Shown in pieces: positions 12,910-40,708 of a stretch of DNA of 64,000 bases. The translations under genes and the position numbers were made by a program. Source of the DNA: Tagaea sp. (lineage in GTDB: Bacteria; Pseudomonadota; Alphaproteobacteria; CACIAM-22H2); contig JBGAKN010000005.1 in assembly GCA_044224405.1 (NCBI GenBank), forward strand, positions 15,725-79,724. Direction: 5' to 3'. Position 1 is the first letter of the stretch, and each line of letters starts with the position of its first letter. The notes below the pieces were generated by a model, which saw only the letters and a list, made by a program, of their open reading frames with translations, did no database searches and had not been told where the DNA came from.

Positions 12910-12921
12910 TACGGAAGTTCC

Positions 12922-14678: not shown

Positions 14679-14680
14679 GC

Positions 14681-15958: not shown

Positions 15959-15967
15959 CTAGCGTAC

Positions 15968-16609: not shown

Positions 16610-16613
16610 TTTT

Positions 16614-18747: not shown

Positions 18748-18764
18748 CGGTATGGGCCACTGCC

Positions 18765-19910: not shown

Positions 19911-19947
19911 CGCGAAGACCCCGTGAGGTGTTGGACGTTGTCGGCCG

Positions 19948-21138: not shown

Positions 21139-21168
21139 CTTGCGTGGCCGTTTCCCGTCTTGTCCGGT

Positions 21169-22221: not shown

Positions 22222-22258
22222 CGTGTCCTCGCCAAGCTTCCGTGCGCCTGCGGTCCGA

Positions 22259-23296: not shown

Positions 23297-23321
23297 GTCG
23301 GTTCCGATTCCGTTGTTGCCG

Positions 23322-25738: not shown

Positions 25739-25749
25739 CTGGGCTGCCG

Positions 25750-26574: not shown

Positions 26575-28349
26575 GCGGAATGGCTCTCCGTTGCCGAACC
26601 CCGGCGCGAACTGGACCGGGCCTTGAGATCGTGGACGACCAGATCGAGAAGCTGGCGGATGTCCTGCACGCCCATCGCTGCTTCGTCGGAAAGACGCACG
26701 TCGAACATGTCCTCGACCATCGCCAGGAGCTGGACGTGGCCCAGCGAATCCCACTGCGCGATCGCCGTGCGCGGCGTGTCGAGCGAGATTTCGACCGGCG
26801 GAACCGCGAATAGCTGCGCGATCGAAGCGGTCAGCTTCGCGCCGATCGCGGCAACGTCGACGCCGCGCCCCGTCGTACGGCTGGCGACATAGAGCTCGAC
26901 GAGCCGGTCACGCACGACCTTGCCGAGCTTGTTGACCGGCAGCGCATCGATCTGAAGGATCTGTGTCGGCACCTTGTACGAGGCGACCCGCGAGCGGAGC
27001 GCGCCGAGCAGGCGCGGCGGCTCGATCGGCGCGTCGGAGGTCACGTAGGCGACGACGTCTTGGCCTAGGATCGGATGCGGCACGCCGACCGCGGCCGCCG
27101 ACCTGATCCCGGGAATCGCGCACAGCGCCTCCTCGATCTCCAGAGGGAAGATCTTGTACGCGCCGCGGCTGATCACCGTCTTCGCACGCCCGACAAGAAC
27201 GATGTTGCCGTCCGGATCGATGCGCCCGAGATCGCCGGTCTGCAGCCAGCCGTCGACGAAGCTGGGCGGTTCCGTGCCGATGAAGCGGCTCGCGACGTTG
27301 GGGCCCGTGACCTGGAGCTCCCCCACTTCGCCCACGTCCATCTCGATGCCGGCCGCATCGACGATGCGGACGCGGTTGACGTCGAGCGGAAGCCCCGCCA
27401 CGCCGGGCCGCCGGATCTTCGGATCGAGGCTGTTGAGCGCGATGCCGCACGTGCATTCCGTAAGGCCATAGCCCTGGAGCAGCGGGATTCCGAAACGCGT
27501 CTCAAAGGCGGCCTGGTCCGCAGGCGGAAGATAAGCCGAGGCAGTGCCTATGAAGCCCAGATGCGTACGCGTCGACGGCGCCGGCTCGGCGGGCGACCGG
27601 TTGAGGATCGCGACGTGGCTAGGCACGAGCTGGACGAACTCGATCTTGCCGTCCGCGATATCACGCCAGAACGTCTGCGGATCGAGCTTGCGGCGCATGT
27701 GGATCGTGCCGCCGGTCAGCAGCGGCATCAGCAGGCTGCGATAGAGGCCGGAAACATGCGCGTAGGTCAGGATCGACCCGTGCTGCATCGGGCGATCGAA
27801 AGCATAGGCGCGCAGCATCGAATCGAGTTCCGCGAGGATGTTCGCGTGCGTGTGGACGACGCCCTTGGGTTGGCCGGTCGTGCCGGAGGAGAAGATCGCG
27901 AAGGCCGGCGATTGGGCCGTGCTGTCCGGAGTGCGGCGCGTTGCATGCCCCGGCGTAGCCGACAGGTCGATGTTGCGCACGCCGTCGATATGCATGGTGC
28001 GTCGCACGACGGCTTCCGGACCGACAAGACGCACATAGTCGGCAAGCTGGGCGTCGGGAATCTCGGCGTCGAGCAGCGCAAGGCACGCACCCTGCCAAAG
28101 GCCGGCAAGGATCAGGGCGGCGAGCCGGCTCGAATTCTCCATACACACGAGCAGCGTCGCGCCGGGTCCGAGGCCCGCCCGGGAAAGTTCCTCGCGCACG
28201 GCGGCAACGTTCCCGTCCAACTCGGCATAAGTAAGCGTCGCCCCGGTGTCGAGATCGCGAAAGGCAACGCGCGCGCCATGCGCGTCGAAGGACTGCGCGA
28301 GCGCGGCGGCGACATTGGCGTATGACGTGATGCGTTGGTTCGATGCCAT
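26571..28349 (-). CDS. acyl-/aminoacyl-AMP ligase (adenylation domain) fused to an acyl-carrier-protein domain
   Basis: AMP-binding motifs (SSGTTGQPKGV, YGLTE, GDLGRIDPDGNI, GRAK) are followed by a C-terminal carrier domain with the phosphopantetheinylation motif DSLGHVQL. Confidence 0.7.
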   Translation of the reverse strand: MASNQRITSYANVAAALAQSFDAHGARVAFRDLDTGATLTYAELDGNVAAVREELSRAGLGPGATLLVCMENSSRLAALILAGLWQGACLALLDAEIPDAQLADYVRLVGPEAVVRRTMHIDGVRNIDLSATPGHATRRTPDSTAQSPAFAIFSSGTTGQPKGVVHTHANILAELDSMLRAYAFDRPMQHGSILTYAHVSGLYRSLLMPLLTGGTIHMRRKLDPQTFWRDIADGKIEFVQLVPSHVAILNRSPAEPAPSTRTHLGFIGTASAYLPPADQAAFETRFGIPLLQGYGLTECTCGIALNSLDPKIRRPGVAGLPLDVNRVRIVDAAGIEMDVGEVGELQVTGPNVASRFIGTEPPSFVDGWLQTGDLGRIDPDGNIVLVGRAKTVISRGAYKIFPLEIEEALCAIPGIRSAAAVGVPHPILGQDVVAYVTSDAPIEPPRLLGALRSRVASYKVPTQILQIDALPVNKLGKVVRDRLVELYVASRTTGRGVDVAAIGAKLTASIAQLFAVPPVEISLDTPRTAIAQWDSLGHVQLLAMVEDMFDVRLSDEAAMGVQDIRQLLDLVVHDLKARSSSRRGSATESHSA

Positions 28350-28378
28350 GATTCTCGTTCCGGTCGGGCGGCCGCTTG

Positions 28379-29176
28379 TTAGCGCGCCCAGGGACGGCGC
28401 TGTGGCGGTGCCGCCAGCAGGCCGTATATGTTCCGCTTCAGGATTGCCATCGTCGATTCGTACATGGCCGCCGCGCGATAGCACCACACGCCGCTGTCGC
28501 CGAGCGCCTCGAAGGCGACTTCGCCTCGATTCGTCATGCGATCGACCAGGCGGTTGGTATCCCACTCGATGTCGGAATCCCTCCATTTCACGTGGTGAAA
28601 ATAGGGGCCCGGCTGCACGCGGCTGCCGACGACGACGGGGATCGACAGTTCTTTACTGTAGCGGTAGGGCACGCCCGCGAAGACTTCGGCGAGGTGGATG
28701 AAGAACCCGCCGCGATGGGGCGAGCGGCCGATACTGACGACGAGCGCATCGCCCTCGACAAGCCGGTGCGTGACCGACCCGTAGCCGTAGGAATGCGCGG
28801 CAGCATTCTCGCAGAGTTCCTTCGCGCGCGGCCCTATGGCGGCAAACGAGAACACCGGATGCACCGACCGGCTGGCACCGGTCCGGACACGCAAATGCTC
28901 GCTGACCGCGCCGGTTTCCGAAGCACTCGTCTCGTGCACGTAGGGACTGTCCGGACCGGTACGGTGATAGGTGAACGTCGGCGCGCAAAGCGTCACGCCA
29001 TCACCCGCCGCCTCGTTAAGCGCGTCGTAGAGAGCGGCCACGCCGGCCCGCTCCCCCGCCCCCGCCCCGCGGCCAAGCGCGGCAAGGTCCGTGATGACGA
29101 CGACATATCGTTGGCCGGCCACGCCGAGACGTCCGAAAAGCGAGCGGATTTCACCGATGTCGACGCCTGCGAACAT
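28379..29176 (-). CDS. AAC(3)-family (Antibiotic_NAT-like) N-acyltransferase
   Basis: 265-aa protein with AAC(3)-like features (GVTLCAPTFTY, HLAEV). Confidence 0.45.
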   Translation of the reverse strand: MFAGVDIGEIRSLFGRLGVAGQRYVVVITDLAALGRGAGAGERAGVAALYDALNEAAGDGVTLCAPTFTYHRTGPDSPYVHETSASETGAVSEHLRVRTGASRSVHPVFSFAAIGPRAKELCENAAAHSYGYGSVTHRLVEGDALVVSIGRSPHRGGFFIHLAEVFAGVPYRYSKELSIPVVVGSRVQPGPYFHHVKWRDSDIEWDTNRLVDRMTNRGEVAFEALGDSGVWCYRAAAMYESTMAILKRNIYGLLAAPPQRRPWAR

Positions 29177-29186
29177 CCCTCTCGGC

Positions 29187-30032
29187 CTAGCGCTTCTTGA
29201 ACGCGCACACGAGCGAGCGCGACGCTTCGCCGAAGGGCTCGAGCGCGAACGACCCGTGGAAGGACGCCTCGAATCCGAGCGCCTGCGCGATCGCGGAGAG
29301 CTCGCGTACTGAGAAAAACTTGTAAAGCTCGCGCTTCTCGCGGGCGCCGCCGCCGGCGCGTGGCAGGTAGATCGACAGGTTCTGCACGACCATGTGCGCC
29401 CAATCGACTATCGTCGTCTCGTAGAGCGCGTAGACGAACGCATCGCGGTCATCGCCCTTGTGCCAGGTTCGCGTGCGCGTATCCCGCCGTAGCGCGTCGA
29501 GCTGGGTCGGCGAAAGCACGTCGAACTCCATCAGCAGGAGCCCGCCGGGCACGAGAACTCTGGCCGCCTCGGCCGCGATTCGCCGGGGCAACGCCACGTC
29601 GCAGGGATAGAGATAGGACAGCGCGCCGTCGATCGCGATCGCGAGATCGAGCGGCCGATCGGGCCATGCGAACGCGCCGGCCGACATGTTGACGTTCCGC
29701 ACGCGCGTTGCGCCGAGGGCTAATCCCCACTCCTGCGCGAAACGGTGCCGCGAGGCCGAGACCTCGACCCCCGTGCCGCTTCCGAGCATACCCGCCGCGT
29801 CCAGCGCGTAGAGAAGCCTGCCGCTTCCAGCGCAGAGTTCGAGCACGTCTAGGCGGCGGCCGGCCGGCGCGAGCTTGCGGATCGCGTCCACGGCATCGGC
29901 CGACTTCCGCAGCAGCAGCGAACGATATGCCTCGAGTGCCGCGACGTCGGGATAGTTCGACGCGGCCTCGACCTCGGCATAGGCGGCCTCGTTGACCTTC
30001 GGGTCCCAGGTGATCGGCGGATACGGTTCCAT
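29187..30032 (-). CDS. class I SAM-dependent methyltransferase
   Basis: Motif LELCAGSGRLL is present. Start taken at MEPYPPITW to avoid a 56-nt overlap with the upstream gene. Confidence 0.5.
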   Translation of the reverse strand: MEPYPPITWDPKVNEAAYAEVEAASNYPDVAALEAYRSLLLRKSADAVDAIRKLAPAGRRLDVLELCAGSGRLLYALDAAGMLGSGTGVEVSASRHRFAQEWGLALGATRVRNVNMSAGAFAWPDRPLDLAIAIDGALSYLYPCDVALPRRIAAEAARVLVPGGLLLMEFDVLSPTQLDALRRDTRTRTWHKGDDRDAFVYALYETTIVDWAHMVVQNLSIYLPRAGGGAREKRELYKFFSVRELSAIAQALGFEASFHGSFALEPFGEASRSLVCAFKKR

Positions 30033-30045
30033 CTTCTGTACGTCC

Positions 30046-31737
30046 TCAGGCCTTTGCGGCTTCGATCCGCTTGAGAATGCGCTCGGCAGAAAGGAAATCA
30101 CCCATCCTCGCCTCGAAGGTCGGCGCGTCCATGACGATCAGGTCGATGTAGGTAAGAAACTGCGCCATGTCGTCGCCCGACAACTGTTCGAAAACCGACC
30201 GCTGCGCCACATAGGTCGGCTTGTCGTACGGATACGGATACTGGGCCACCCAGTGGTAGACGAAATAGAACAGCAGCGCGAGATCGCGGCGACGCTCGTC
30301 GAGCGACCCCGCCGCCGCGACGGCCGGCAGGCTCTTCAGATGGTCGAAATACTCCTGCCGAGTCTTCGCGTCGTACGTGAAGCCGCGATGCGAATAGACG
30401 ACGTCGCTGGCGACGGCCACGTGCTTTCCCATGGTAGCCATCTCGAGCCCCGTCGAGGACGAGAAAACGACGCCGTAGAGGCAGCGCTCCATCAGCCGAT
30501 AGGTGTTCACCTTGGCTTGGCCGGGGATGATCACGAGCCGCTCACCCGGCGAGATTCCCGACGTCGCGAGCAACTGGTGGACCGGATCCCTGCCGCCCCA
30601 CCAGAGCCCCTCGCCGGGGTGCGCTCGCACGACGACGACTTCGTCGGTCTCGCGCAGCAGGTATTCGACCGTCTGCACGAGCCATTCGCGCATGGTCGGA
30701 AACAGGTTCGTGATCTTCCCATACCCCGCGTCGAACACGACGTTCGGGCAGACGAGGACGAACGGGCGTTCGGGGTCGATACCCGCGGTGCGGAACGCCT
30801 CGGCGGTTGATTGGTCGACCGCGCGTTGGAGCTCCCAGAGCCATGTTTCGGTTGAATTCTGCGACCGCGCGCGAATCGACCCCAAAGCCTGCGCAACGAA
30901 GCGCGAGAAATACGGCTCGGCCGTGTAGCCCAGCTCCTCGCGCTTGCGCCAGATGGCACCAATGTCATCTCCGGCCAGGAAATGGTCGCCGTGGTTGATG
31001 ACCCGCACGCCCCGGAAGGCGAACTTCTCGGTGCCGTTGACCTCGTGCCCGAACTCGCGCAGGACCCGACAGGCGTGCGATCCCTCAAACGTTGTGCCGT
31101 TGCCGACGATGCAAATGTCGTATCGGTGCTTCGAGAAATGGTTCCGGAGCGCGATCTGGGCCGTGCGGCCTGCCGCGTTCATGTGATCCAGCAGCGCCCG
31201 GATGGCCGGATCCTGCATGTCGATATTCTCGCGCTGCAGGGCCATGACCATGTCATAGCGTGCCTGCTTCTCGACCGCGGTCTCGTCGAACGCGACGGGC
31301 GCCAGATCGTCTGACAGGTCGATCGTGCGGATCGCGCCGCGGCTGAGGCGCTCGACCTGCGCCAGCGCCGCCTTGAGATAGGGCTTCGCGGTCGGCGAAT
31401 CGGCCAGCGGTTGCTTGTTCGGGCTCTGCAGCTTTGGCAGGTAACCGAGCGTGATCCGATGCCCGCGCCAGGCGAGCATCACGGCCAGCAACAGATGCGA
31501 CGTGAACACGCCGCGATAAGCCACGAATATGAAGACATGGCGCGACGGCGGCAGCGGTTCGCGGCGAGGCGCGGCGAGGCCGTCGATCCACGCCGGCACC
31601 ATCACGTGCAGGTTCCACTTGTCGTTCGGTAGCAACTGGCGCACCAGCGGCGACAGCAGCGAGATCACCGCACGCCCGACCGGCCCCGGATGCCGATGCG
31701 CATAGAACCGGCCGAAGATCCCGTCGACGAGCCCCAT
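30046..31737 (-). CDS. capsule-polysaccharide-biosynthesis (KpsS/KpsC-like, Capsule_synth) family protein, candidate CMP-ulosonate transferase
   Basis: GT-B-like C-terminus with VVVRAHPGEG and SSSTGLEMATMGKHV. It is a paralog of 31776-33374. Start taken at MGLVDGI. Confidence 0.45.
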   Translation of the reverse strand: MGLVDGIFGRFYAHRHPGPVGRAVISLLSPLVRQLLPNDKWNLHVMVPAWIDGLAAPRREPLPPSRHVFIFVAYRGVFTSHLLLAVMLAWRGHRITLGYLPKLQSPNKQPLADSPTAKPYLKAALAQVERLSRGAIRTIDLSDDLAPVAFDETAVEKQARYDMVMALQRENIDMQDPAIRALLDHMNAAGRTAQIALRNHFSKHRYDICIVGNGTTFEGSHACRVLREFGHEVNGTEKFAFRGVRVINHGDHFLAGDDIGAIWRKREELGYTAEPYFSRFVAQALGSIRARSQNSTETWLWELQRAVDQSTAEAFRTAGIDPERPFVLVCPNVVFDAGYGKITNLFPTMREWLVQTVEYLLRETDEVVVVRAHPGEGLWWGGRDPVHQLLATSGISPGERLVIIPGQAKVNTYRLMERCLYGVVFSSSTGLEMATMGKHVAVASDVVYSHRGFTYDAKTRQEYFDHLKSLPAVAAAGSLDERRRDLALLFYFVYHWVAQYPYPYDKPTYVAQRSVFEQLSGDDMAQFLTYIDLIVMDAPTFEARMGDFLSAERILKRIEAAKA

Positions 31738-31775
31738 GGACCGCCATTTCAGGACCTCGCGGATGCGCCGGAGAA

Positions 31776-33374
31776 TCACGCCCGCCCCCCCAGGCAGCCG
31801 CGCACGACCCGCCAGACGTTGTAGCTGTCGATCGACGCCCCGAGCCATTCGCGTATCAGCTCGACCTCGTCGTACAGCGCCGGGCGCGCGGCAAGAAGCT
31901 GGCGCGCCACCGCCGGATGCAGGCTGCCGTCGAGAACCCGCGTGTCGCAGGTGAGTGTCAGCGTGTCCGCGCCGGCCGGCGGCGCCAGCGCGGTCGCCGC
32001 GAATGCGAAGGCGCGCTCGCTCTGCTCGGCCGTGGGCGGTGCCAGATCGGCGATTCCGCGCAGCAGGCGCTCGTAATCCTCGCGCGAGGTCGCACAGTGG
32101 GTGAAGCCCCAGTCGGTGTACATGCTCCGATCGGCGCACAGCACGGGCTTGCCCATCGCGGCCGCCTCGATGCCGATCGAACCATGGATCGTGACGAAGA
32201 CGTCGGCCGCTTCCTGCATGGCCAGCGAATCGGTCCGCTCGGGTACGATGCGGATATTGGGCGGCAGCTTGCCAATCAGGTCGGAAATCCGGAGGTCGTC
32301 GTACCAGAGGTCGCACGGATGCGGCTTGATAGCCCAGTTGAGATGCGTGAGCGGGCGGATGGTCTCGATCGTATGGAGCAGCCAGTCCAGCGGCTCGGTG
32401 AAATTGCGCATCGCCTGCGTGTGGGGGAAGTCATACCACGCATGGGAATAGACGACGGCGAGCTTGCGCGAGGGATCGAAACCGAATTCGCGGAGGAACT
32501 GCTCGCGCGAACGGCCGCGCTGTTCGGCATGGACCGAATAGCGCAGCACGACGAAATCGGATCGCCCGGCGTAACGCTCGTCGAGATATTCGCGGCCGCG
32601 CGCGACCAGCGCGGCACGCGCTTCGACCGGCAGCGCCTGATACTCGTCAAAACGCAGATGCTCGTTGGGCGCGCGGTAGTCGTCCGGCCGGCGCATGCGG
32701 CGAATACGGATGCTGCCGTAGTGGGCCGTCATGTAGAAAAACGGGACGCTGCGCCGGATCGCTTGCCAGCACAGCGCAGCCCACTCGTTCTTCCAGGCAT
32801 GGCTCGACACGACCCCGGTGACGCGATTGTCGGCGAACAGGCCGGAATAGAAGTCCGACCAGCGCAGGAGGTCGGCGACGGTCTCGCGCCATACCGGATT
32901 GCCTTCGACGGTCGGCTGCGGATGCCGCAGTCGCTTGAGCGCGGTATCGACGAAGACATAAGCCGGCATCTCGTCCGGGAGCTCAAGCGACAGCAGGTCG
33001 CGCAGCGTCCGCGGCCGGCCCAAGATCTCGTCCGCACGGCGCAGATGGCCTTCTTCGGTCGGCGCAGGATGCTCGAAGCGCACGACGCCCAGCGCCTCGA
33101 GATTCCGCCGGCTGTCCGCATAGATGGCCGACGTCGGCTCCTGCATCACGGCAACGACATCGGCCGGACGATCCTTGAGCGCGGCATGAAGGAACATCCA
33201 CAGCCGCAGCCAGTGATTCGGATTCGACCACATGCCCTCGACGACCAGCGTGTCGCGTGCGCCGTGGCTGATCGGCGGACGGCTGGCGCGCAGAAGCGCG
33301 CGGATCGCCCACATCCAGAGGCCATCACGCGTGCGCCGAACGACGGCGCGGAGTCTTTCGTGGAATCGGGACAT
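31776..33374 (-). CDS. capsule-polysaccharide-biosynthesis (Capsule_synth) family protein, candidate CMP-ulosonate transferase
   Basis: Contains WAIKPHP and HGSIGIEAAAMGKPV, paralogous to 30046-31737. Confidence 0.45.
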   Translation of the reverse strand: MSRFHERLRAVVRRTRDGLWMWAIRALLRASRPPISHGARDTLVVEGMWSNPNHWLRLWMFLHAALKDRPADVVAVMQEPTSAIYADSRRNLEALGVVRFEHPAPTEEGHLRRADEILGRPRTLRDLLSLELPDEMPAYVFVDTALKRLRHPQPTVEGNPVWRETVADLLRWSDFYSGLFADNRVTGVVSSHAWKNEWAALCWQAIRRSVPFFYMTAHYGSIRIRRMRRPDDYRAPNEHLRFDEYQALPVEARAALVARGREYLDERYAGRSDFVVLRYSVHAEQRGRSREQFLREFGFDPSRKLAVVYSHAWYDFPHTQAMRNFTEPLDWLLHTIETIRPLTHLNWAIKPHPCDLWYDDLRISDLIGKLPPNIRIVPERTDSLAMQEAADVFVTIHGSIGIEAAAMGKPVLCADRSMYTDWGFTHCATSREDYERLLRGIADLAPPTAEQSERAFAFAATALAPPAGADTLTLTCDTRVLDGSLHPAVARQLLAARPALYDEVELIREWLGASIDSYNVWRVVRGCLGGRA

Positions 33375-33378
33375 CGCT

Positions 33379-33957
33379 CTATGCGGCGCGGATCGCGCCC
33401 TCGAAACGGGTGCGGATATGCGCCTTGGAAAGCGGGATCACGCCGACGCCGTCGGGCATGCCCACCGCAGTACGGACGACAATAACGTGCGGTCCGACGG
33501 TCCCGAAAGCATCAGCGAGCGCCTGTCGCGCTTCGCCGGGCCGCTCCACGGTCCGCACGCTGTCGATGCCTGCTGCGCGCGCAACCGCATCGAGGCGCAG
33601 GCGGCCGGCGGTGAAAGACGGCTGGAAGCCGGTCGAGCCGTTGGCGGCGTTGTCGATGATTATCTGGACGAGGTTTCCCGGCCGAAGGTGCCCCAGCGTC
33701 GCGAAGGCGCCCATGTTCATCGTGACCGACGCATCCCCGTCGATCGCCACGACGGGCCGCGCGGTCGACAGGGCCACGCCCAGCGCCACGCTCGTCGCCA
33801 GCCCCATCGAACCGAGCATGTAGAAGTTCTGGGCGCGGTCGCGGATCCTGAAGAGTTCCTGCGCCGGATGGCCCAGATTGCACACGACCAGGGCATCGCC
33901 GAAAGCTTCGGCCAGTTCCTGGAGCGCCTCGTAGCGCCGATAAGGATTGGTCTTCAC
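33379..33957 (-). CDS. thiamine-diphosphate-dependent decarboxylase, beta subunit (ComE / phosphonopyruvate-decarboxylase-like)
   Basis: 192-aa ThDP-binding C-terminal-type domain (GSMGLATSVALG, GDAS..MN). Confidence 0.6.
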   Translation of the reverse strand: MKTNPYRRYEALQELAEAFGDALVVCNLGHPAQELFRIRDRAQNFYMLGSMGLATSVALGVALSTARPVVAIDGDASVTMNMGAFATLGHLRPGNLVQIIIDNAANGSTGFQPSFTAGRLRLDAVARAAGIDSVRTVERPGEARQALADAFGTVGPHVIVVRTAVGMPDGVGVIPLSKAHIRTRFEGAIRAA

Positions 33958-34520
33958 TTCGCGACCCTCCAGTACGAGAACGGCAGCAGGATCGCCAGCG
34001 AGCTCGCCGCAAGCGCGCTCTCGCGCAACGCGTCGGCGACCAGCGGCAGATCGGAAACGGCACCGGCCGTCGCGTGCCGGATACCCACCAAATCAAAAAG
34101 CGACTGGGTGATGCCGCCCATCATCCTCTGCGCTTCGATCGGCTCGCCATCGCTGCCGCGATGGCTGACGATGAACGTCATCGGCATCGCGTAGTAGTTG
34201 ACCAGAGCCATGATGGCGTTGATCGAATTTCCGAGCCCCGAATTCTGCATCACGATCGCCGGCCGCTTTCCGGCGAGGCCGGCGCCGAACGCGATGCCCA
34301 GCCCTTCTTCCTCGCGCGAAACCGGGCTGTGAAAAACCGCCTGGTCCGTGGCCAAGCGGTCGATGAGGTCGCTGAGAAGCTTGCAAGGCACGGAAACGAA
34401 GAAATCGAGCTTCGCCGCGCGCAGCACGTCATAGAGCGCCGCCGTCGGGTCGGCGGCAACCGGCGCGCTCGGCCTTTGCATAACCATATTCCTGTCACTC
34501 ATGCCTGGTTCACCTCCCAA
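33954..34520 (-). CDS. thiamine-diphosphate-dependent decarboxylase, alpha subunit (ComD / phosphonopyruvate-decarboxylase-like)
   Basis: 188-aa ThDP-enzyme N-terminal pyrimidine-binding-type domain. It overlaps the beta-subunit start by 4 nt. Confidence 0.6.
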   Translation of the reverse strand: MGGEPGMSDRNMVMQRPSAPVAADPTAALYDVLRAAKLDFFVSVPCKLLSDLIDRLATDQAVFHSPVSREEEGLGIAFGAGLAGKRPAIVMQNSGLGNSINAIMALVNYYAMPMTFIVSHRGSDGEPIEAQRMMGGITQSLFDLVGIRHATAGAVSDLPLVADALRESALAASSLAILLPFSYWRVAK

Positions 34521-34524: not shown

Positions 34525-35904
34525 TCACGCAGCCGCGCGCGATTCGACGAAATCGGCCAACCGGAGCGCGTATGGCGCTTCGAACGGCGTCACGAAAAAC
34601 TCGGTTGCCCGTTTCAACTGGGCGGCAAAGCCGACGTCGCGCGAACGCGCGACGATCTCGGCGACGCCGGCCGCGAGTTCGCCGCGCCCGCTGGCGATCG
34701 CGAATTCAGGCCGCTCGAAAAAGTCGCCGAAATGCACGAATTCCCGATTGATCGACAAGAACCAATTGCCGACATCGGCATCGTCCACGAAACAGAGCGG
34801 CGGCTTGCCGTTCATCGCGGCCTCGAGAAGGATCGTCGAAAGCGGCGAGACGACCGCATCGACGCTGGCCAGCACGTCCCGCGTGTGGCGATAGTCGGGC
34901 GTGGTGATGCCTTGTCGGCCGGCGCCGGCACGTCGGACATACTCGGCCATCGTCGTTTCGAAGGCGACATGCTTCCAGGCGCGGGCCGCGATCCGGCCGC
35001 CATCACGCCCGCAATTGCCCCATGGATGCGGCCGGTAGACGATCGACACGCCGGCGAGCCGGCCGCTTTCGACCTCGCGTTCGAGCACGTCAAGATCCGC
35101 GTACTCGTCGCACCCCTTGCTTGAGCCGGCGTAGAGCACGACGGTGCGCGCCGGATCAATGGCGTGCCGCCGGCAGAACTCGTCACGATCCATCGACGGT
35201 GGCGAACGATAGACTTCGAACTGCGCCGCACCGAACTCGACGACCGATTCGGACGGCATGCCCGCGAACCGCAGCGCATGGGCGCGCGTCTGGGGGCCCC
35301 AGACCAGCAGCCGATCCGGGTGGCCCACCATCGCCCTTTTGGTCGAGGGGTTGTCCCACGAATTCATGATCGCCACGAGCGGCGTGTGCCGACGCCCGAG
35401 GACGTCGACGAGATCGTTCAGATAGAGGCCCGAGAGGACCGTCGGATGCACCACCGCGTCCGGACGCTCCGCTTCGAGCAGGGCCTCGAGCGCCGCGCAT
35501 CCCACGCGCAAGGCCTTCGCCAGCAGTATCCGCCGATAGACGGGCCACACGAACGGTAGGCCGTAGAACCGGTAGATGCGTGCCGTCCATTCGCCGATCG
35601 CGTTGGCGTGGTGGCGCGCCACTGCCGAAGTGTGCGGGTCAAGCCTCCCGCGCAGGCTGTCGATCTGGAACATCCGCTGCCAGATCGCGTTGCGCTCAGC
35701 TGATTCCGGAAGGCGGATCAGGCGGTCGGCAGGCAGCATCGAGATGTCGAGCTCGCGAATGCGCTTGTGGCCTTCCGGAAGGGTCACGTAGCGCACATCG
35801 TGCCGGGACTCGATCTCCGCGAACGCGCCCGACGCGACGAAATGCCGGACGATGATCGGATGATCGAGAAAGACGAGGACCTTGAGGCGTCGGGACACGC
35901 TCAA
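34525..35904 (-). CDS. hypothetical GT-B-like protein (HP motif SIVYRPHPWG)
   Basis: 459 aa. No confident family; an HP motif is shared with 23322, 30046 and 31776. Confidence 0.3.
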   Translation of the reverse strand: MSVSRRLKVLVFLDHPIIVRHFVASGAFAEIESRHDVRYVTLPEGHKRIRELDISMLPADRLIRLPESAERNAIWQRMFQIDSLRGRLDPHTSAVARHHANAIGEWTARIYRFYGLPFVWPVYRRILLAKALRVGCAALEALLEAERPDAVVHPTVLSGLYLNDLVDVLGRRHTPLVAIMNSWDNPSTKRAMVGHPDRLLVWGPQTRAHALRFAGMPSESVVEFGAAQFEVYRSPPSMDRDEFCRRHAIDPARTVVLYAGSSKGCDEYADLDVLEREVESGRLAGVSIVYRPHPWGNCGRDGGRIAARAWKHVAFETTMAEYVRRAGAGRQGITTPDYRHTRDVLASVDAVVSPLSTILLEAAMNGKPPLCFVDDADVGNWFLSINREFVHFGDFFERPEFAIASGRGELAAGVAEIVARSRDVGFAAQLKRATEFFVTPFEAPYALRLADFVESRAAA

Positions 35905-36620
35905 CCGCTCCGTTCGCCCGACGCGAGCAACACCTTCTCGACTGCGGCAAAATCGTCTTCGGTGTCGATCGAGACCGCCGGGCCGTGCGCCACGACCGCG
36001 CCGCTGCGCGCGCCCATGATTGCGCCATGCTCAAGAAGGCAGGTGCGCGAGAACGCGTAACTCAATCCGTTCCGGTAATAGACCGGCACGAGCTGCTGGC
36101 GCGCGATGATCTGGCCGCCTTCGGGGTCCCAATAACGGAGACTGCCGCCCTCGCCCACCACGAGCGCCTTCATCGGATGGTACTTGATGTCGGCAGGCGA
36201 CACGGTCCACACCGCATCGAGCCCCTCGTCGACCAGCTTGACGAAGGTCGCTCGGACAAGGTCGGCGGTCCGCAGCGGCGAGGTCGGCTGCAGCATGAGC
36301 ACCACGTCGTACCGTACGCCGTCGATGCGCTCGCATTCGTGCAGCGCATGGCGCAGGACCTCAAGATCGCCGATGCGGTCGCCCGAAAGATGTTCCGGGC
36401 GACGGAACGGCGCCGCCAGCCCCGATGCCTCGGCGACTTTCACGATCTCCTCGTGATCGGTCGACACCACGGCACGATCGATATCGGCGATCGAGCGCAC
36501 CAGATGGCCGACGCGGGCCACGATCGGCACGCCCAGCACGGTACGGAGGTTCTTGAGCTTGACGCCCTTGCTGCCCCCGCGGGCCGGGCATACCGCCAGA
36601 ATGCGCGCGTTCTTGTACAT
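35901..36620 (-). CDS. N-acylneuraminate (nonulosonate) cytidylyltransferase, NeuA/KdsB-like
   Basis: Canonical N-terminus AVCPARGGSKGVKLKNL of CMP-sialic/ulosonic acid synthetases. Confidence 0.75.
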   Translation of the reverse strand: MYKNARILAVCPARGGSKGVKLKNLRTVLGVPIVARVGHLVRSIADIDRAVVSTDHEEIVKVAEASGLAAPFRRPEHLSGDRIGDLEVLRHALHECERIDGVRYDVVLMLQPTSPLRTADLVRATFVKLVDEGLDAVWTVSPADIKYHPMKALVVGEGGSLRYWDPEGGQIIARQQLVPVYYRNGLSYAFSRTCLLEHGAIMGARSGAVVAHGPAVSIDTEDDFAAVEKVLLASGERSG

Positions 36621-36627
36621 CGGTCGA

Positions 36628-37386
36628 TCAGCGCGACTTGCCGATCACAAAGCCCTTCTGGCGGATCGAATAGTAGATGCCGGGCTTCTCGCCGCCCGAG
36701 GCGATGAAAGCCGTGCGAACGCGCGCAAGCGCGCGGCTCTGCCGATAATGGCAATCCGACTCACGGATGTCGGTGAACCCTGCGATCGCCAGCCAGCTCG
36801 CGATCGCCTTGCGCGACGGAACGTGCGTGACGTTCGAGCTGATATGGTACTTGCGCTTCGTCTCGCCGGTCGGCGACGGATACCAGATCTCGACGCAGTT
36901 CTCGTCCCGCAACCCGCGACGGCGCGCGATGCTGCTTTCGATCGCCAGCAGCCCGTCGGGCTTCGTCAGATCGAAAAGCTTGGTGATCATCCGAAGCTGC
37001 TCGGGATTGTGGTAGAGCACGCCCGTGCACCAGACGAGATCGAACGGCTCGAGCTCCTCGACCCACGGCTCGTACATCATGTTTCCGTAGCGAAGCTCCA
37101 CGCTCGGCCGCGCGATCTTCGAGTACCAGCCGTCTAGATTGTCCTTCTTGTCTTCAAGCTCGATCAGCAGCAGGTGCTCCGGCTCGAGCGTCAGCAGGCG
37201 CGCGGTGTCGCGGCCGTCCTTCGGGCCGATCTCGAGAATGCGCAGCGGCCGTTTTCCACCCAGACGCGCGACGACATCCTCGAACAGCAGAGTTCGATAG
37301 TCCTTCACCGACCAGCCCATGATCCGGCGAATGACATGTTTCGCCGAATCCGGCACCAGGCTACGCAGCATCTGCAATGCGGTCAT
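36628..37386 (-). CDS. class I SAM-dependent methyltransferase
   Basis: Motif ILEIGPKDGRD is present. It overlaps the HAD gene start by 4 nt. Confidence 0.45.
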   Translation of the reverse strand: MTALQMLRSLVPDSAKHVIRRIMGWSVKDYRTLLFEDVVARLGGKRPLRILEIGPKDGRDTARLLTLEPEHLLLIELEDKKDNLDGWYSKIARPSVELRYGNMMYEPWVEELEPFDLVWCTGVLYHNPEQLRMITKLFDLTKPDGLLAIESSIARRRGLRDENCVEIWYPSPTGETKRKYHISSNVTHVPSRKAIASWLAIAGFTDIRESDCHYRQSRALARVRTAFIASGGEKPGIYYSIRQKGFVIGKSR

Positions 37387-38018
37387 CTTGTTCCGACGGG
37401 TTGGAGAAATTTCTGGGGGATCCGGGCTTCAACCCAGTCGGCTGCAGCCACCGGCGATCGACGGAAAAGCGCGCTCGGGCCGTCGTCCACCCTGGCGAAC
37501 GCGCAGCCGCAAGCCGCGGCCGAACGATCGTCGTCGTCACCGTCGCCCACGACAAGGGCGCCAGACGCAGACTCCGCGGCAAGGATCGCGCGGAGATTCT
37601 CGACCTTCATCTCGAAGCCACCACGCGAACCGCGCAGGCGATCGGCAAGTCCAGCCGCCGCAAGGATGGCCTGCAGCTCGTCCGCCGGCGTGGCCGAGCT
37701 GACATGGACGGCGTGGGCGCGCGCGGCGAGCTCGGCAAGAAACTTCCGCGCCCACCCGTCAGCCAGGCGGACGAGGATCGCCTCGCGCACGATCCGCGTG
37801 TAGCGGCCGGCGAATTCGCCCGCTAGCTCCGGCCGCCCGAGGGCCTCGGCAACGCGCGCCATCGTCGTGAACCGATCGCCACGGCCGCCGGCCGCGAAAA
37901 ACCGGTCGAGCGCCGCCGGCGCACCGGGAACGTCGCGCACCGCATCATGGTAAGCGTCGCGCTTCACACCGTTCGAATCGACGAGCGTGCCGTCGAAGTC
38001 GAATACGAGGACCGCCAT
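37383..38018 (-). CDS. HAD-superfamily phosphatase
   Basis: HAD motif I VLVFDFDGTLVDS and C-terminal GDGDDD. Start taken at MAVLVFDFDG. Confidence 0.6.
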   Translation of the reverse strand: MAVLVFDFDGTLVDSNGVKRDAYHDAVRDVPGAPAALDRFFAAGGRGDRFTTMARVAEALGRPELAGEFAGRYTRIVREAILVRLADGWARKFLAELAARAHAVHVSSATPADELQAILAAAGLADRLRGSRGGFEMKVENLRAILAAESASGALVVGDGDDDDRSAAACGCAFARVDDGPSALFRRSPVAAADWVEARIPQKFLQPVGTR

Positions 38019-38026
38019 CGGCGCGA

Positions 38027-39562
38027 TCAGAGCTGGTAGCGGCCCCAGTGGTCGACCACGGTCTTCCGCTGCTCGCGCGTCAGCGCCTGGATCGCGGCTT
38101 CCTGATAGACCGAATCGTTGTTGTAGTGGGTCGAGGAAACCTCCTCGACGACCGCGCCGGTCTCGCTCCAGAAACGATGCCACACCCCGGGAAGGACGAG
38201 CTGGGTTTCACCGGCGCGCAGCGTGCGCACGCGCCCGTCGACTTCGACCGTCAGCTCGCCCGAAAGCACCTGGAAGGTCTCTTCCTTGCGCTTGTGAAAA
38301 TGCAGCGGATGGCGCTGACCAGGAAGCTGGATCAGCAGCTTCTTGCAATATTCGCGATTGACGCAGGTGATCAGCGTCGTGCCGACCTCGCGGAACTTCT
38401 CGATGCCGTAATGATGCGAAAATTCGACCTGGAAGCTCGTATCGAGCGCCACCTGGGATTCGGCGAGCATCGCCTTGACGTCGTGGATCGCGTGCTTGAG
38501 GAGCAGCACGCCTCCGTCGGCCGGCCGGCTGGCTGCGGCGACGTCGATCGCGCCGTCGCGCGCGATGGCGCGGGTCACGACGATGCCTTCGCGCCAACTG
38601 CCGCTGTCGAGCTGACTGTCGGCGCACGGCATCGCGAAATAGACCATGTCGCGCGTCAACGGCGTGTCGGCCTTCACGGGAACGCGCGCGAAGACCCCGC
38701 GCCGCAGGCTGACGATCGACGCCGCTTCGACCGCGGTCGCCGGCGGCCGGCTGGCGCCGCCGCATATCGTGCGCGCCTTGCCGTAGGCCGAGAACCATAC
38801 GTCGAGCTGGGCGGGCGTCGACGAATAGGCGTTGAGCTTGATCGTGTCCGTCGTCACGCCGACATGGCGCTCGAACATCCGCGCGCCCTTCGCCACGGCG
38901 ATCGCCACCGGCATCGTGTCGTCGGGATTTTCGTGTGTCGACCAGCCGATCGTCACGCCCGGATAGCGCCGACGCAGCGCGTCGATCTGGTTGAGCTGCA
39001 TGTCGCTGTCAGGCGTCGGGTAGATCGAGACGCAGTGCATCAGCGCGAAACGCGCAGCGCGATTCGAGAAGAAGCTGACGAGATTGTCGATATCGGCGAT
39101 CGTGAGGCCGCCCGTCGAAGCGACGATCGGGAGACCGGCCGTCGTCGCCTTCTCGAGCAGCGGCCAGTCGGCGGCCGAGCAGCTCGCGATCTTCAGTACA
39201 TCGAACCCCATTTCGCGGATGAGGTCGACCGAGGCCTCGTCGAACGGCGTGCACATCGAAATCATTTCCTGCGCGCGAACCTCGTCGAGCAGCGCCTGGA
39301 ACCCGGCGCGATCAAGGCGCGTCGAGAGGAAGCGGCCAACATGCTTGTTGTCGCTCGACGCGCGATGGGCCGAATGGATGAACGTGTCGAGGTCGCGGAA
39401 CTGGAATTTCATAGCGGCGCGCACGCCGTGCTTGCGCGCGGCGGCAGCGCATTCCGAGATGATGCGCCGCCCGTGGGCGACGTCTCCTTGGTGGTTGTTG
39501 GCGACATCCAGGACGAAGAGATCATCGAACAGGAAGCTCGGCTTGATCAGGCTCGGTTGCAT
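38027..39562 (-). CDS. NeuB-family ulosonic acid (phospho)synthase fused to a C-terminal type-II PMI-like cupin
   Basis: NeuB N-terminus FVLDVANNHQGD plus a SAF-like middle region. The C-terminal cupin (HFHKRKEETFQVLSGELTVEVDGRVRTLRAGETQLVLPGVWHRFW...EEVSS) matches the mannose-6-phosphate-isomerase cupin of ManC/AlgA-type enzymes. Confidence 0.6.
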   Translation of the reverse strand: MQPSLIKPSFLFDDLFVLDVANNHQGDVAHGRRIISECAAAARKHGVRAAMKFQFRDLDTFIHSAHRASSDNKHVGRFLSTRLDRAGFQALLDEVRAQEMISMCTPFDEASVDLIREMGFDVLKIASCSAADWPLLEKATTAGLPIVASTGGLTIADIDNLVSFFSNRAARFALMHCVSIYPTPDSDMQLNQIDALRRRYPGVTIGWSTHENPDDTMPVAIAVAKGARMFERHVGVTTDTIKLNAYSSTPAQLDVWFSAYGKARTICGGASRPPATAVEAASIVSLRRGVFARVPVKADTPLTRDMVYFAMPCADSQLDSGSWREGIVVTRAIARDGAIDVAAASRPADGGVLLLKHAIHDVKAMLAESQVALDTSFQVEFSHHYGIEKFREVGTTLITCVNREYCKKLLIQLPGQRHPLHFHKRKEETFQVLSGELTVEVDGRVRTLRAGETQLVLPGVWHRFWSETGAVVEEVSSTHYNNDSVYQEAAIQALTREQRKTVVDHWGRYQL

Positions 39563-39613
39563 GGCAGGTTTCCGGAAAGGGGCGGGAAGGTTTTGCGGGG
39601 CGGCCGGTTACGT

Positions 39614-40708
39614 TCAGCCGGAGATCGCGCCCGGACCGGGCGGGGCCGCGTGGTCGATCCGCACGCGCCGGCCGGTGCGCGCGGATTCGTGCGCTGCCGC
39701 GATCACCAGCATGGTCTCGACGCCGCGAGCGAGCGCGAGCGGCGATTCCTGGGGCTTGCCGCCGGCCAAGGCCGCCTCGATATGCTGGAGTTCGCGGATG
39801 AAGTCGTCCGGCCTGGTCTTGGCAACGTCCTCGGAACCTTCGCGACCCGGCTGGGTCCACCAGCGCACGACATCGAAGCCCGGACGCACGCCGCACGCCC
39901 ATTCGAGCGAGCCGCGCTCGCCCTGGACCCGCGCCCACTTGCGGTGCGGCACGGTCACGACGTCCTGCACCACACGGCCTGCGAGGCCGCCCTCGGTGCG
40001 GAGATTCAGCAGCGCGATGCGGTCGTAATCGACCTTGCCGTCGTTCACGTAGTCGAGCGTCGCCTGGACCTCGACGACGCGTCCGACGCCCGTCACGTGC
40101 GCGAGGAACTGCCAGAAATTGATCGCGTGCGAATGCTCGCCGGTGGCGCCCCCACCGCGCTTCCAGAAGCCCAGATAGCTGTCGTGCGGACCGGCGAGCC
40201 AGGGATGCGCGGCAAAGATGCCACCCCAATGCTCGCGGAATTCGACGTCGATCGTCTGCATGCGGCCAAGATCGCCGCCCGCCAGCCGCTTTTGCGCGAG
40301 CTCCGCGGCAAGTCCCACGACATGATCGTAGCCCACGAACACGGCCGTTCCCTGGGCGCGCGCCTTGTCGACGAGGGCCGCGAGCCCTGCGAGATCGGGC
40401 ATGCACAGCGGCTTCTCTACCTGCAGGGCGCGCGGCTTTTCATCGAGCGCGGCCATCGCGAGGGCAAGATGGTGGTCGGGCGGCGTTCCGACGCAGATCA
40501 GATCGTAGCCGCCTTTGGGGGCTTTGGCCGGTTCGTGCAGGCCGATTGCCGGATCCCATTTGCCGTAGCGGCCGGGATAGAGCGATTCGCGCGTGCGCAC
40601 GAGAGCCGCCGGATCGACGTCGCAGATGTCGACCGACCAACCCAGTCGACGCGAAGCGTTGGCGAGATGATTGCCGATCGAGCCGGCGCCATGGATTTTG
40701 ACGCGCAT
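39614..40708 (-). CDS. Gfo/Idh/MocA-like NAD-binding oxidoreductase
   Basis: N-terminal Rossmann fold RVKIHGAGSIGNH and a conserved EKP (QVEKPLC). Confidence 0.5.
   Translation of the reverse strand: MRVKIHGAGSIGNHLANASRRLGWSVDICDVDPAALVRTRESLYPGRYGKWDPAIGLHEPAKAPKGGYDLICVGTPPDHHLALAMAALDEKPRALQVEKPLCMPDLAGLAALVDKARAQGTAVFVGYDHVVGLAAELAQKRLAGGDLGRMQTIDVEFREHWGGIFAAHPWLAGPHDSYLGFWKRGGGATGEHSHAINFWQFLAHVTGVGRVVEVQATLDYVNDGKVDYDRIALLNLRTEGGLAGRVVQDVVTVPHRKWARVQGERGSLEWACGVRPGFDVVRWWTQPGREGSEDVAKTRPDDFIRELQHIEAALAGGKPQESPLALARGVETMLVIAAAHESARTGRRVRIDHAAPPGPGAISG

Follow-up and report, generated by a model that had tools for sequence, protein, structure and literature searches.

A split ThDP-dependent decarboxylase pair of the ComDE lineage in a nonulosonate surface-glycan locus of Tagaea sp., with a possible role in sulfonate decoration

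In a 64,000-nucleotide stretch of the genome of Tagaea sp. (hereafter the window, meaning that whole stretch), two overlapping genes for a split thiamine-diphosphate (ThDP)-dependent decarboxylase lie within a locus for LPS and nonulosonate biosynthesis, raising the question of which 2-oxo acid such an enzyme would act on there, and to what end. A sequence-only reading had assigned the pair to the ComDE/phosphonopyruvate decarboxylase (Ppd) superfamily, which the domain, family and motif matches described below bear out. It had also treated such enzymes as companions of PEP mutase, and considered a neighbour-made ulosonate as the substrate; neither proposal fared as well.

The alpha/beta gene pair

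Both open reading frames are intact (Table 1) and divide the enzyme cleanly, with the alpha subunit matching only TPP_enzyme_N (PF02776; E = 2.2e-9), the beta subunit matching only TPP_enzyme_C (PF02775; E = 6.3e-18), and the TH3/middle domain absent, as in the architecture of ComDE, whose separate subunits measure about 170-190 aa. The catalytic glutamate corresponds to alpha E70 in an REEEG motif (numbered on a 188-aa form), and is invariant in all groups aligned. The beta subunit carries the Mg/diphosphate motif G74-D75-A76 ... D102-N103, in which the third residue is Ala for Gly, as throughout its subclade; the pair therefore possesses the ComDE combination of a PYR-domain Glu and GDG-X(25-27)-N(N), in a GDA variant. 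Among NCBIfam models, the alpha subunit matched sulfopyruvate decarboxylase alpha (TIGR03845; E = 3.8e-43), its 147.2 bits falling marginally short of the cut-off of 147.95, and the beta subunit matched sulfopyruvate decarboxylase beta (TIGR03846; E = 4.8e-54), with 183 bits clearly under the cut-off of 221.5. The phosphonopyruvate decarboxylase model TIGR03297 scored more weakly (beta 128.9 bits, alpha 91 bits; cut-off 312.5). From these sequence features, the two genes are predicted to encode one heteromeric, split ThDP-dependent 2-oxo-acid decarboxylase of the ComDE lineage.

The beta start is preceded by GGAGGG 8-13 nt upstream, and the alpha ATG at 34502 by GGGAGG approximately 10 nt upstream. 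The alpha start had earlier been set at 34520, an upstream TTG giving the 188-aa form; public records carry the exact alpha product in its 182-aa form, as well as the exact beta product. Spacing throughout is tight (22 nt to the upstream gene, a 4-nt alpha/beta overlap, and 4 nt from the beta stop to the next gene start), and the pair is co-directional with its neighbours in the middle of a long operon-like run.

Table 1. Coordinates of the decarboxylase genes and surrounding features in the window.
Feature	Position	Strand	Matches and motifs
ThDP decarboxylase alpha (PYR-domain) subunit, 182 aa	33954..34502	(-)	PF02776, TIGR03845, catalytic Glu
ThDP decarboxylase beta (PP-domain) subunit, 192 aa, GTG start	33379..33957	(-)	PF02775, TIGR03846, Mg/diphosphate motif
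GTGA overlap of alpha stop and beta start, predicted translational coupling	33954..33957	(-)	...GCG AAG TGA / GTG AAG ACC
459-aa HP-motif glycosyltransferase-like gene, just upstream of alpha; final member of the conserved NeuB-cupin module	34525..35904	(-)	
Caps2, putative CMP-ulosonate transferase of 532 aa, KpsC-like (Capsule_synth-like); start 4 nt past the beta stop	31776..33374	(-)	
Caps1, ~534-aa paralogue of Caps2, start uncertain	30046..31650	(-)	
Variable block of ~23.5 kb, ThDP pair first, with no counterpart in a relative's syntenic locus	11053..34502	(-)	
Conserved module: GFO/IDH/MocA, NeuB+cupin, HAD, CmoB-like methyltransferase, CTP_transf_3	35901..40708	(-)	Pfam, NCBIfam

The surrounding locus and an inserted block

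The pair had been placed between candidate ulosonate transferases and a NeuA-like CMP-synthetase. Its embedding among CMP-ulosonate genes stands, while the exact position differs: the 459-aa transferase-like gene lies upstream and the two KpsC-like genes downstream, with the CMP-transferase one gene further upstream. The 459-aa product gave a weak match to the BFO_1060-family glycosyltransferase model NF046086, is 53% identical to a 471-aa protein encoded at the equivalent position of the related locus L179, and has an HP...EAAxxGKP region in common with Caps2. Matches of Caps2 were marginal, both to PF05159 (E = 0.0065, under cut-off) and to the KpsC structures 6MGB and 8FUW (E ~0.07); Caps1 matched PF05159 with E = 0.0045, and aligned with Caps2 at 25% identity across 166 C-terminal residues (E = 2e-12); PDB matches in searches with these proteins were marginal. 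No Caps homologues were found in the ~180 listed ThDP loci, and a plasmid search returned none for Caps2 and three weak ones for Caps1.

Comparison with the related loci L179 and L180 revealed that the conserved module is collinear there at 55-88% identity, with the methyltransferase and the ThDP genes both missing; together with the transferase, the GFO-NeuB/cupin-HAD-CMP-transferase-GT order is retained at 53-88% identity with zero ThDP genes. In L179 the 471-aa transferase gene is followed directly by an epimerase gene, and the homologues of these two neighbours lie apart in the window, at 34534-35889 and 10027-11001. The intervening block opens with the ThDP pair, Caps2 and Caps1, a methyltransferase, an AAC(3)-like N-acyltransferase and an AMP-binding-ACP protein. 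These are followed by PhyH, DUF4910, PseB-like, NeuB+SAF, DegT, WbuX and HisF-like genes, and then by nucleotidyltransferases, DegT/GFO genes and an ABC exporter. On this synteny the 23.5 kb segment is predicted to be a strain-specific insertion, and from its gene content to equip a surface-sugar locus with a second nonulosonate pathway as well as two KpsC-like transferases and an ABC exporter. Approximately 3.5 kb past the right edge of the window, covered by a 5.2 kb Logan contig, continues with GT4, epimerase and SDR genes.

Among the matches listed, this arrangement of the ThDP pair was found in one organism only. An apparent second occurrence (L001), with neighbour tblastn identities of 93-97%, proved to be 100% identical DNA interrupted by an assembly gap, and thus lends no independent support and allows no dN/dS estimate.

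Phylogenetic placement and gene contexts of relatives

To place the pair among ComDE, Ppd/AepY and other split ThDP relatives, as the sequence-only reading had proposed, a neighbor-joining tree with bootstrap was built from 116 pseudo-fused alpha+beta sequences. Relatives were drawn from genome and metagenome scans, and the counts given below cover the matches listed and are to be read as "at least". The window's pair groups with L008, L005, L007, L009, L085 and L010 at 100% bootstrap, within a wider 11-member clade also at 100%, and the AepY side (AepY, P0111, P0115, L146 and L156) is divided off by a split with 100% bootstrap; its place is hence among sequences whose neighbourhoods imply sulfopyruvate. 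In tblastn searches of plasmids, the pair was 42% identical to roseobacter comDE and at most 36% identical to aepY. It also matches the consensus at 79 of the 93 columns conserved in relatives linked to ComA, ComB or cysteate synthase. At the 13 columns separating ComDE from AepY, the window has the ComDE-type residue at all 13 and the AepY-type residue at none, although the mutase-linked L146 and P0111 and a RhiEF-like pair also lack the AepY residues; we therefore rejected these columns as substrate markers, and use them, as markers of the AepY clade, only as evidence against membership of it. Taken together, these analyses place the pair, by sequence, on the sulfopyruvate branch rather than the AepY/Ppd branch. 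The expectation of an accompanying PEP mutase applies to the latter, and the partner truly missing from the window is a source of sulfopyruvate.

Clade position does not in itself fix the substrate. Nested on a long branch within the radiation on the ComDE side is L170, a putative split Ppd of RhiEF-like type carried by a Priestia plasmid, which has 9 of the 13 ComDE-type residues; its products are annotated only as TPP proteins, and its locus also includes ATP-grasp genes and a gene of the ICL/PEP-mutase family. Members of the family are, in addition, known with other substrates. The subclade of the window is further distinguished by beta-subunit changes in and near the cofactor/active-site loop (GDG to GDA, Y106N, T114S and D121R), to which the window alone adds alpha S105A and A78F at near-invariant positions.

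The gene neighbourhoods of the clade are indicative of sulfonate metabolism. Cysteate synthase is encoded directly upstream in L006, L010, L002, L004 and L175, with TIGR03844 scores of 372.7 and 385.8 (cut-off 324.9). A SafD/PhnY-like aldehyde dehydrogenase is encoded directly downstream in L005, L006, L010, L002, L086, L090 and L018. In L009 the gene immediately downstream encodes TauE/SafE, and L008 and L085 are accompanied by ABC genes and TauA-like binding proteins. Across 163 listed related loci, partner genes comprised at least 50 for cysteate synthase, 16 for ComA, 12 for ComB and 2 for PEP mutase. The nearest relatives form an uncharacterised cassette of cysteate synthase, split ThDP alpha/beta and SafD-like aldehyde dehydrogenase (L006, L010, L005 and L175, with a fused version in L002), whose members are 53-67% identical to the window in the beta subunit, fall in the same 100%-bootstrap clade, and have the GDA/N106/S114/R121 signature in common with it. 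In contrast to the cassette, the window lacks cysteate synthase and the aldehyde dehydrogenase, and has KpsC-like transferases and a nonulosonate pathway.

Of the described systems, ComDE of coenzyme M biosynthesis (Methanocaldococcus jannaschii type, EC 4.1.1.79) likewise consists of two small subunits, PYR and PP, without a middle domain, has the catalytic Glu and ThDP/Mg motif, and provided the best NCBIfam matches. The pair is, however, only ~35-45% identical to it, missed both equivalog cut-offs, has no ComA, ComB or ComC nearby, and belongs to an LPS/nonulosonate locus in a high-GC proteobacterium-like genome. Archaeal ComDE decarboxylates 3-sulfopyruvate, and neither pyruvate nor phosphonopyruvate (PMC11350588). 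Catabolic ComDE of roseobacters (Leisingera and Sulfitobacter plasmids), the best annotated match, is likewise split with a stop/start overlap, yet sits in DHPS/sulfolactate operons with hpsN-like, SDR/ADH, TRAP transporter and alpha-hydroxy-acid oxidase genes, none of which was found in the window. AepY/Ppd and the split RhiEF (PDB 9IZ3/9IZ4) belong to the same superfamily and fold, and RhiEF is the only solved structure that matched the pair (beta E = 2.6e-23; alpha E = 1.7e-11). A literature search found no paper associated with PDB entries 9U8Q, 9U8R and 9U8S. LumK/LumL, a two-subunit ThDP heterocycle decarboxylase of riboflavin catabolism cited by its authors alongside RhiEF and ComDE (PMC12746152), acts on a substrate that is neither sulfo nor phosphono; it resembles the pair in its published description, and its pathway and context are unrelated to those of the window.

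Candidate substrates and a possible glycan role

The absence of PEP mutase remarked on by the sequence-only reading was confirmed for the 64 kb by Pfam scans of ~60 plausible ORFs, by tblastn with a Pfam-verified PEP mutase, and by hmmsearch --max with a six-sequence profile against the six-frame translation (best E = 2); Pfam, tblastn and profile searches likewise found no AEP transaminase. Equally missing from the 64 kb were cysteate synthase, ComA and ComB (tblastn and profile HMMs, six-frame translation) and a sulfoacetaldehyde-type aldehyde dehydrogenase (tblastn and profile HMMs). More broadly, neither the 64 kb nor the 3.5 kb past its right edge includes a gene that would make sulfopyruvate (ComA/B/C, cysteate synthase, or sulfolactate dehydrogenase/oxidase) or obviously consume sulfoacetaldehyde. 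The NeuB-cupin, HAD and GFO proteins were considered as stand-ins for ComA, ComB and ComC and rejected, since in NeuB enzymes PEP serves as the nucleophile that attacks an aldehyde and not as a sulfite acceptor, and since the NeuB-cupin module is conserved without ThDP genes. Sulfoacetaldehyde as the aldehyde substrate of NeuB-cupin was also dismissed, as its C5 product could not be expected to cyclise for CMP activation.

With a probability that we put at roughly 45%, the pair would be a ComDE-type sulfopyruvate decarboxylase, making sulfoacetaldehyde for a C2-sulfonate glycan substituent from a substrate produced elsewhere in the genome. What the enzyme acts on, what becomes of the aldehyde and how both relate to the glycan we infer as follows. 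The genes may have been acquired as the first of the 23.5 kb block when it joined the conserved LPS locus, bringing a second, heavily tailored nonulosonate pathway, the KpsC-like transferases and the exporter. The most likely reaction would be 3-sulfopyruvate to sulfoacetaldehyde and CO2 (EC 4.1.1.79), with sulfopyruvate supplied from outside the window, for example through cysteate synthase and a general aminotransferase or by sulfolactate oxidation. Sulfoacetaldehyde could then act as donor of a taurine amide, N-2-sulfoethyl, isethionyl or sulfoacetyl group on the glycan of the block. The locus setting of the pair hints at such decoration, and sulfonated bacterial glycans have precedents in the N-(2-sulfoethyl)-Ala-Gly of Clostridioides difficile type B flagellin (PMC5207245) and the taurine amides of Staphylococcus aureus CP1 (PMC12043029).

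It is unlikely, in our estimation, that the substrate is another 2-oxo acid, whether a 3-deoxy-2-ulosonic acid (open-chain Kdn, Kdo or nonulosonate) or oxaloacetate, hydroxypyruvate or 3-phosphohydroxypyruvate, giving an aldehyde for glycan tailoring or for the AMP-ACP acylation module. The missing sulfopyruvate source, the scores under the equivalog cut-offs, the tight coupling to CMP-ulosonate transferase-like genes, and the subclade- and window-specific substitutions near the cofactor loop are all consistent with it, and unrelated substrates have precedent in LumK/LumL and in the aromatic-degradation context of P0115. The same subclade substitutions nevertheless occur in L006 and L010, directly behind cysteate synthase. 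For an ulosonate made by the neighbouring genes, nothing in the analysis speaks in its favour, the synteny is unfavourable in that L179 and L180 keep a complete NeuB-cupin module without ThDP genes, and no NeuB gene adjoins any of the ~330 listed relatives. Ulosonic acids, moreover, occur for the most part as cyclic hemiketals, and the CMP-transferase encoded in the locus uses them up. Should the substrate prove not to be sulfopyruvate, the GDA/N106/R121 subclade would represent a new specificity in a recently diversifying family (RhiEF, LumKL).

We find it quite improbable that the pair has RhiEF/AepY function as a split phosphonopyruvate decarboxylase, with PEP mutase elsewhere in the genome and a glycan bearing 2-aminoethylphosphonate or a related phosphonate. 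Split Ppd enzymes such as RhiEF do exist, the Priestia RhiEF-like pair nests on the ComDE side, and several cytidylyltransferases of the window could in principle activate a phosphonate. Against this, PEP mutase and AEP transaminase went undetected, TIGR03297 scored far under its cut-off, and the clade of the window has sulfonate-type neighbours only, with the 100% split dividing it from all mutase-linked sequences but the long-branched RhiEF-like one. PEP mutase, from which Ppd receives its only known substrate, was furthermore present in the same locus for every verified Ppd examined, adjacent in five and ~2-5 kb off in two (L170 and L171). L146 serves as an internal control, being a split Ppd relative in a glycan locus (DegT/GFO/CMP-transferase) that adjoins PEP mutase (E = 1e-151) and falls on the Ppd side of the tree. 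L146, with its adjacent mutase, and the window, with none, separate cleanly by phylogeny. In practice, a glycan locus with a "Ppd/ComDE-like" gene should be considered phosphonate-marked only where it also encodes PEP mutase.

We regard as very unlikely that the pair is a passenger without a glycan role, carried in with the block or serving general sulfonate metabolism; its position at the very edge of the insertion, the absent partner genes, and the catabolic or transport contexts of other clade members would fit, but both genes are undamaged with all cofactor motifs present, and are tightly spaced on one strand amid a long co-directional operon. Least probable is a carboligase in which the post-decarboxylation ThDP carbanion attacks a keto-sugar (e.g. 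a PseB-like 4-keto product) and so adds a two-carbon branch in the manner of YerE-type enzymes. Only the chemistry of ThDP in general and a 4,6-dehydratase encoded in the block suggest such a role, whereas the sugar-branching ThDP enzymes known to us are acetolactate-synthase-like or PDH-E1-like and not ComDE/Ppd, and the alignment shows nothing separating the window from its decarboxylase relatives.

Returning to sulfopyruvate decarboxylation, the fuller picture of a nonulosonate LPS or capsule polymer carrying a C2-sulfonate (taurine amide, N-2-sulfoethyl or sulfoacetyl), with a dedicated ComDE-type decarboxylase making the donor in situ, is tentative, and we hold it to be rather doubtful. 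The known settings of sulfopyruvate decarboxylase are coenzyme M biosynthesis and the catabolism of sulfolactate and DHPS, and to our knowledge hardly any sulfonated LPS or capsule has been described from Gram-negative bacteria; literature searches for the enzyme together with nonulosonic acid or polysaccharide returned nothing relevant. If correct, the proposal would thus provide a third physiological role for the enzyme and the first gene-encoded route of sulfonate decoration in a Gram-negative surface glycan. A sulfopyruvate decarboxylase in a glycan operon would point to a sulfonated LPS or capsule with altered surface charge and antigenicity, a modification that routine composition analysis would overlook. 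Within the same subclade, L006 (62% identity) also lies in a glycan-type cluster, comprising epimerases, CTP_transf_3, sugar methyltransferases and an ABC exporter.

The gene pair and its glycan locus

The pair encodes the alpha and beta halves of a split ThDP decarboxylase, as the sequence-only reading had proposed, an observation now confirmed far beyond chance. The best curated matches were the sulfopyruvate decarboxylase (ComDE) models TIGR03845 for alpha (E 3.8e-43, 147.2 bits, cut-off 147.95) and TIGR03846 for beta (E 4.8e-54, 183 bits, cut-off 221.5), while the phosphonopyruvate decarboxylase (AepY/Ppd) model TIGR03297 was far weaker (91 and 129 bits vs cut-off 312.5). The catalytic Glu is in place, as is the Mg/diphosphate motif. 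The genes overlap at GTGA, the beta GTG start lying on the alpha TGA stop with GGAGGG ahead of it, and 4 nt separate the beta stop from the next gene's start. The alpha start, previously placed at a TTG at 34520, was reassigned to an ATG at 34502 behind GGGAGG; public records call exactly the same 182-aa and 192-aa products.

Pfam and NCBIfam scans of ~60 plausible ORFs identified a large LPS-type glycan locus around the pair, running from LptD/LptE through FkbM methyltransferases at the right edge. Upstream lie GFO/IDH/MocA, NeuB-cupin fusion, HAD, CmoB-like methyltransferase, PseF-like cytidylyltransferase and 459-aa transferase-like genes. Downstream are genes for two KpsC-like 530-aa proteins (Caps1 and Caps2), a methyltransferase, an AAC(3)-like N-acyltransferase, an AMP-binding-ACP protein, PhyH and DUF4910, followed farther on by a PseB-like dehydratase, a second NeuB (with SAF), DegT, WbuX and HisF-like amidotransferase genes, nucleotidyltransferases and an ABC exporter. 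None of the three transferase-like proteins has a solid family assignment. All three share an HP...EAAxxGKP region at the C-terminus, and KpsC beta-Kdo transferase structures are weak matches to Caps2 (E ~0.07). In the light of CMP-sugar-dependent GT-B enzymes in general, these features fit the earlier description of candidate ulosonate transferases. With two NeuB genes and several cytidylyltransferases besides, the product of the locus may be a polymer made up of two distinct ulosonates.

Features of the window discussed in the text
Feature	Coordinates	Strand	Description
ThDP decarboxylase alpha	33954-34502	minus	182 aa, PYR domain PF02776
ThDP decarboxylase beta	33379-33957	minus	192 aa, PP domain PF02775
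Five-gene module	34525-40708	minus	GFO/IDH/MocA, NeuB with C-terminal cupin (lyxose/mannose-isomerase-like), HAD, CTP_transf_3, ~460-aa HP-motif transferase
CmoB/Methyltransf_9-like methyltransferase	36628-37386	minus	between HAD and CMP-transferase
GT471 homologue	34534-35889		459-aa transferase-like
Transferase-like proteins	30046-33374 and 34525-35904	minus	C-terminal HP...EAAxxGKP region
Dense tailoring set around second NeuB	17366-29176	minus	WbuX and HisF-like gene (acetamidino formation), DUF4910/DUF2172 with wHTH domain, PhyH dioxygenase
Tailoring set, further members	17366-29176	minus	AMP-binding-ACP didomain, AAC(3)-like N-acyltransferase
382-aa protein in tailoring set	23322-24470	minus	no family or PDB match
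Epimerase	10027-11001
LptD/LptE	3.4-6.3 kb

The syntenic loci L179/L180 of a related genome (GCA_016850285.1) have the order GT9, GFO, NeuB/cupin, HAD, CMP-transferase, GT471 (a 471-aa transferase), epimerase, GT4, MT, GT2, MT, LptE, LptD, collinear with the window at 53-88% identity, and contain no ThDP genes. In the window, 23.5 kb separates the homologues of GT471 and the epimerase, and this extra block begins with the ThDP pair. Since L179/L180 lack the block that the pair opens, the pair is to be grouped with the KpsC-like genes, the ABC exporter and the second nonulosonate pathway. The setting among ulosonate genes stands, but decarboxylation of the NeuB-cupin ulosonate becomes less likely, since the pair lies outside that module and L179/L180 keep the module without ThDP genes.

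The five-gene module (8875-14291 in L179/L180) is kept beside GT9 and LptD/LptE at 53-88% identity, and is possibly an uncharacterised LPS-core ulosonate pathway; the CmoB-like gene is missing from L179's otherwise collinear copy. NeuB-cupin fusions form a very large family (6471 proteins at E<=1e-20) with generic names only.

Position within the decarboxylase family

The best annotated-plasmid matches were roseobacter comDE genes in DHPS/sulfolactate operons (42% identity), with aepY at <=36%. In a search of species-representative genomes and metagenomes, the closest beta subunits among the matches listed came from loci L008 (67%), L006 (62%), L005 (61%), L010 (53%) and L009 (52% identity), and ~100 further beta subunits showed 55-68% identity. 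A PALP gene lies directly upstream of the ThDP genes in L006, L010, L002, L004 and L175, with a SafD/PhnY-like aldehyde dehydrogenase directly downstream in relatives including L006, L010 and L002; the PALP genes tested clear the cysteate synthase equivalog cut-off (372.7 and 385.8 vs 324.9). In L009 the pair is directly followed by TauE/SafE; in L008 and L085 its flanking genes encode TauA-like binding proteins and ABC components. Profile searches of 163 related loci found cysteate synthase in 50, ComA in 16, ComB in 12, aldehyde dehydrogenase in 7 and PEP mutase in only 2. Identity, nearest relatives, neighbours and profile counts agree in placing the pair on the ComDE side.

A distance-based NJ tree recovered the window's group at 100% support, and a 100% split set AepY, P0111 (adjoining a PEP mutase-nucleotidyltransferase fusion), P0115, L146 and L156 apart from it. 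In L146 (Ga0190359_1001093, 234-12412), a glycan-type locus holds a split phosphonopyruvate decarboxylase next to a PEP mutase (E 1e-151), and genes for DegT, GFO and CMP-transferase lie at a distance of 6-9 kb. L146 is a useful control: it has the arrangement that the sequence-only reading expected, and it groups with AepY and P0111 on the Ppd side, apart from the window; that reading's PEP-mutase-accompanied type was not borne out for the window's pair, which tree, identities and neighbours place on the ComDE side. The window agrees with the ComDE consensus at 79 of 93 conserved columns, and is ComDE-type at all 13 (13/13) separating ComDE from AepY; these mark the AepY clade rather than substrate, and so are used only against AepY membership.

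Missing partners, proposed function and alternatives

As anticipated, no PEP mutase was detected in the 64 kb: PF13714 matched zero scanned ORFs, tblastn with a Pfam-verified query gave a best E of 1.9, and a six-sequence profile (hmmsearch --max, six-frame translation) a best E of 2. Nor did tblastn and profile searches of the window find AEP transaminase, cysteate synthase, ComA, ComB, SafD-like aldehyde dehydrogenase or alpha-hydroxy-acid oxidase (best E 0.24). With phosphonate and sulfonate partners both absent from the window, the pair is orphaned for both known pathways, not for phosphonate alone. Although predicted to work like ComDE, it scores below both curated cut-offs and is without sulfopyruvate-source genes in 64 kb, and is therefore not filed as a plain ComDE equivalog.

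We propose, at a probability of roughly 0.45, that the alpha/beta heteromer would carry out ThDP-dependent decarboxylation of 3-sulfopyruvate to sulfoacetaldehyde, from which a sulfonate substituent of the inserted block's glycan would be built. Gene contexts in the clade suggest sulfopyruvate as substrate, probably supplied from elsewhere in the genome; no consumer gene for sulfoacetaldehyde was found within the window. The case for a link to the glycan is indirect, by analogy with L006 and known sulfonated glycans. L006 (CAMTUN010000006.1, beta-proteobacterial MAG, 1-20552), of the same subclade, carries cysteate synthase, split ThDP alpha/beta, SafD-like aldehyde dehydrogenase and ABC exporter among epimerases, D-2-hydroxyacid dehydrogenase, HpcH aldolase, CTP_transf_3, FkbM/CmcI/TylF methyltransferases, PhyH and two radical SAM genes; this cluster is a candidate producer of a sulfonated glycoconjugate. 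Precedents include N-2-sulfoethyl-Ala-Gly on C. difficile flagellin (PMC5207245) and taurine amides on S. aureus CP1 (PMC12043029).

That the pair acts on another 2-oxo acid is unlikely given the clade's contexts, but would be consistent with the absent substrate-supply genes, the scores under curated cut-offs, changes across the subclade (GDG to GDA, Y106N, T114S, D121R) and in the window alone (alpha S105A and A78F), and the LumK/LumL precedent of a two-subunit ThDP decarboxylase for another substrate; its ulosonate version is very improbable. More doubtful than the general 2-oxo-acid case, in view of the tree, is a phosphonopyruvate decarboxylase whose PEP mutase lies far off, even with split RhiEF as precedent and a RhiEF-like pair from Priestia that nests on the ComDE side. 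A passenger without glycan role is slightly less probable again, and a carboligase the least probable.

The literature searched held no description of a ComDE-type decarboxylase in a surface-glycan operon without pathway partners. The arrangement is counted in one organism only: the one other contig with the exact beta subunit, among the matches listed, is L001 (ERZ28654051 scaffold_62595), identical to window 32280-34826 (100% DNA identity) except for a ~50-nt assembly discontinuity, and thus the same organism sampled in an independent metagenome assembly.

Variant gene contexts among relatives

Elsewhere in the window's clade (L009, 7948-11310, with TauE/SafE; L183-L186, 7342-10582), the first or second gene upstream of the ThDP pair encodes a creatinase/M24-like hydrolase, an arrangement that may represent a catabolic route for an N-substituted sulfonate. 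The Priestia megaterium plasmid locus (L170, NZ_CP085446.1, 4852-13540) has its RhiEF-like pair between IS6 copies, with two ATP-grasp genes, an M20 peptidase and an ICL/PEP-mutase-family gene, and looks like a mobile rhizocticin-like phosphonopeptide cluster. The closest fused homologue among the matches listed, P0001 in L002 (JACPFK010000025.1, 1-13306), is part of a series of genes (cysteate synthase, ThDP, aldehyde dehydrogenase, PAPS_reduct) that adjoins shell genes of a bacterial microcompartment (BMC, EutN) and another aldehyde dehydrogenase.
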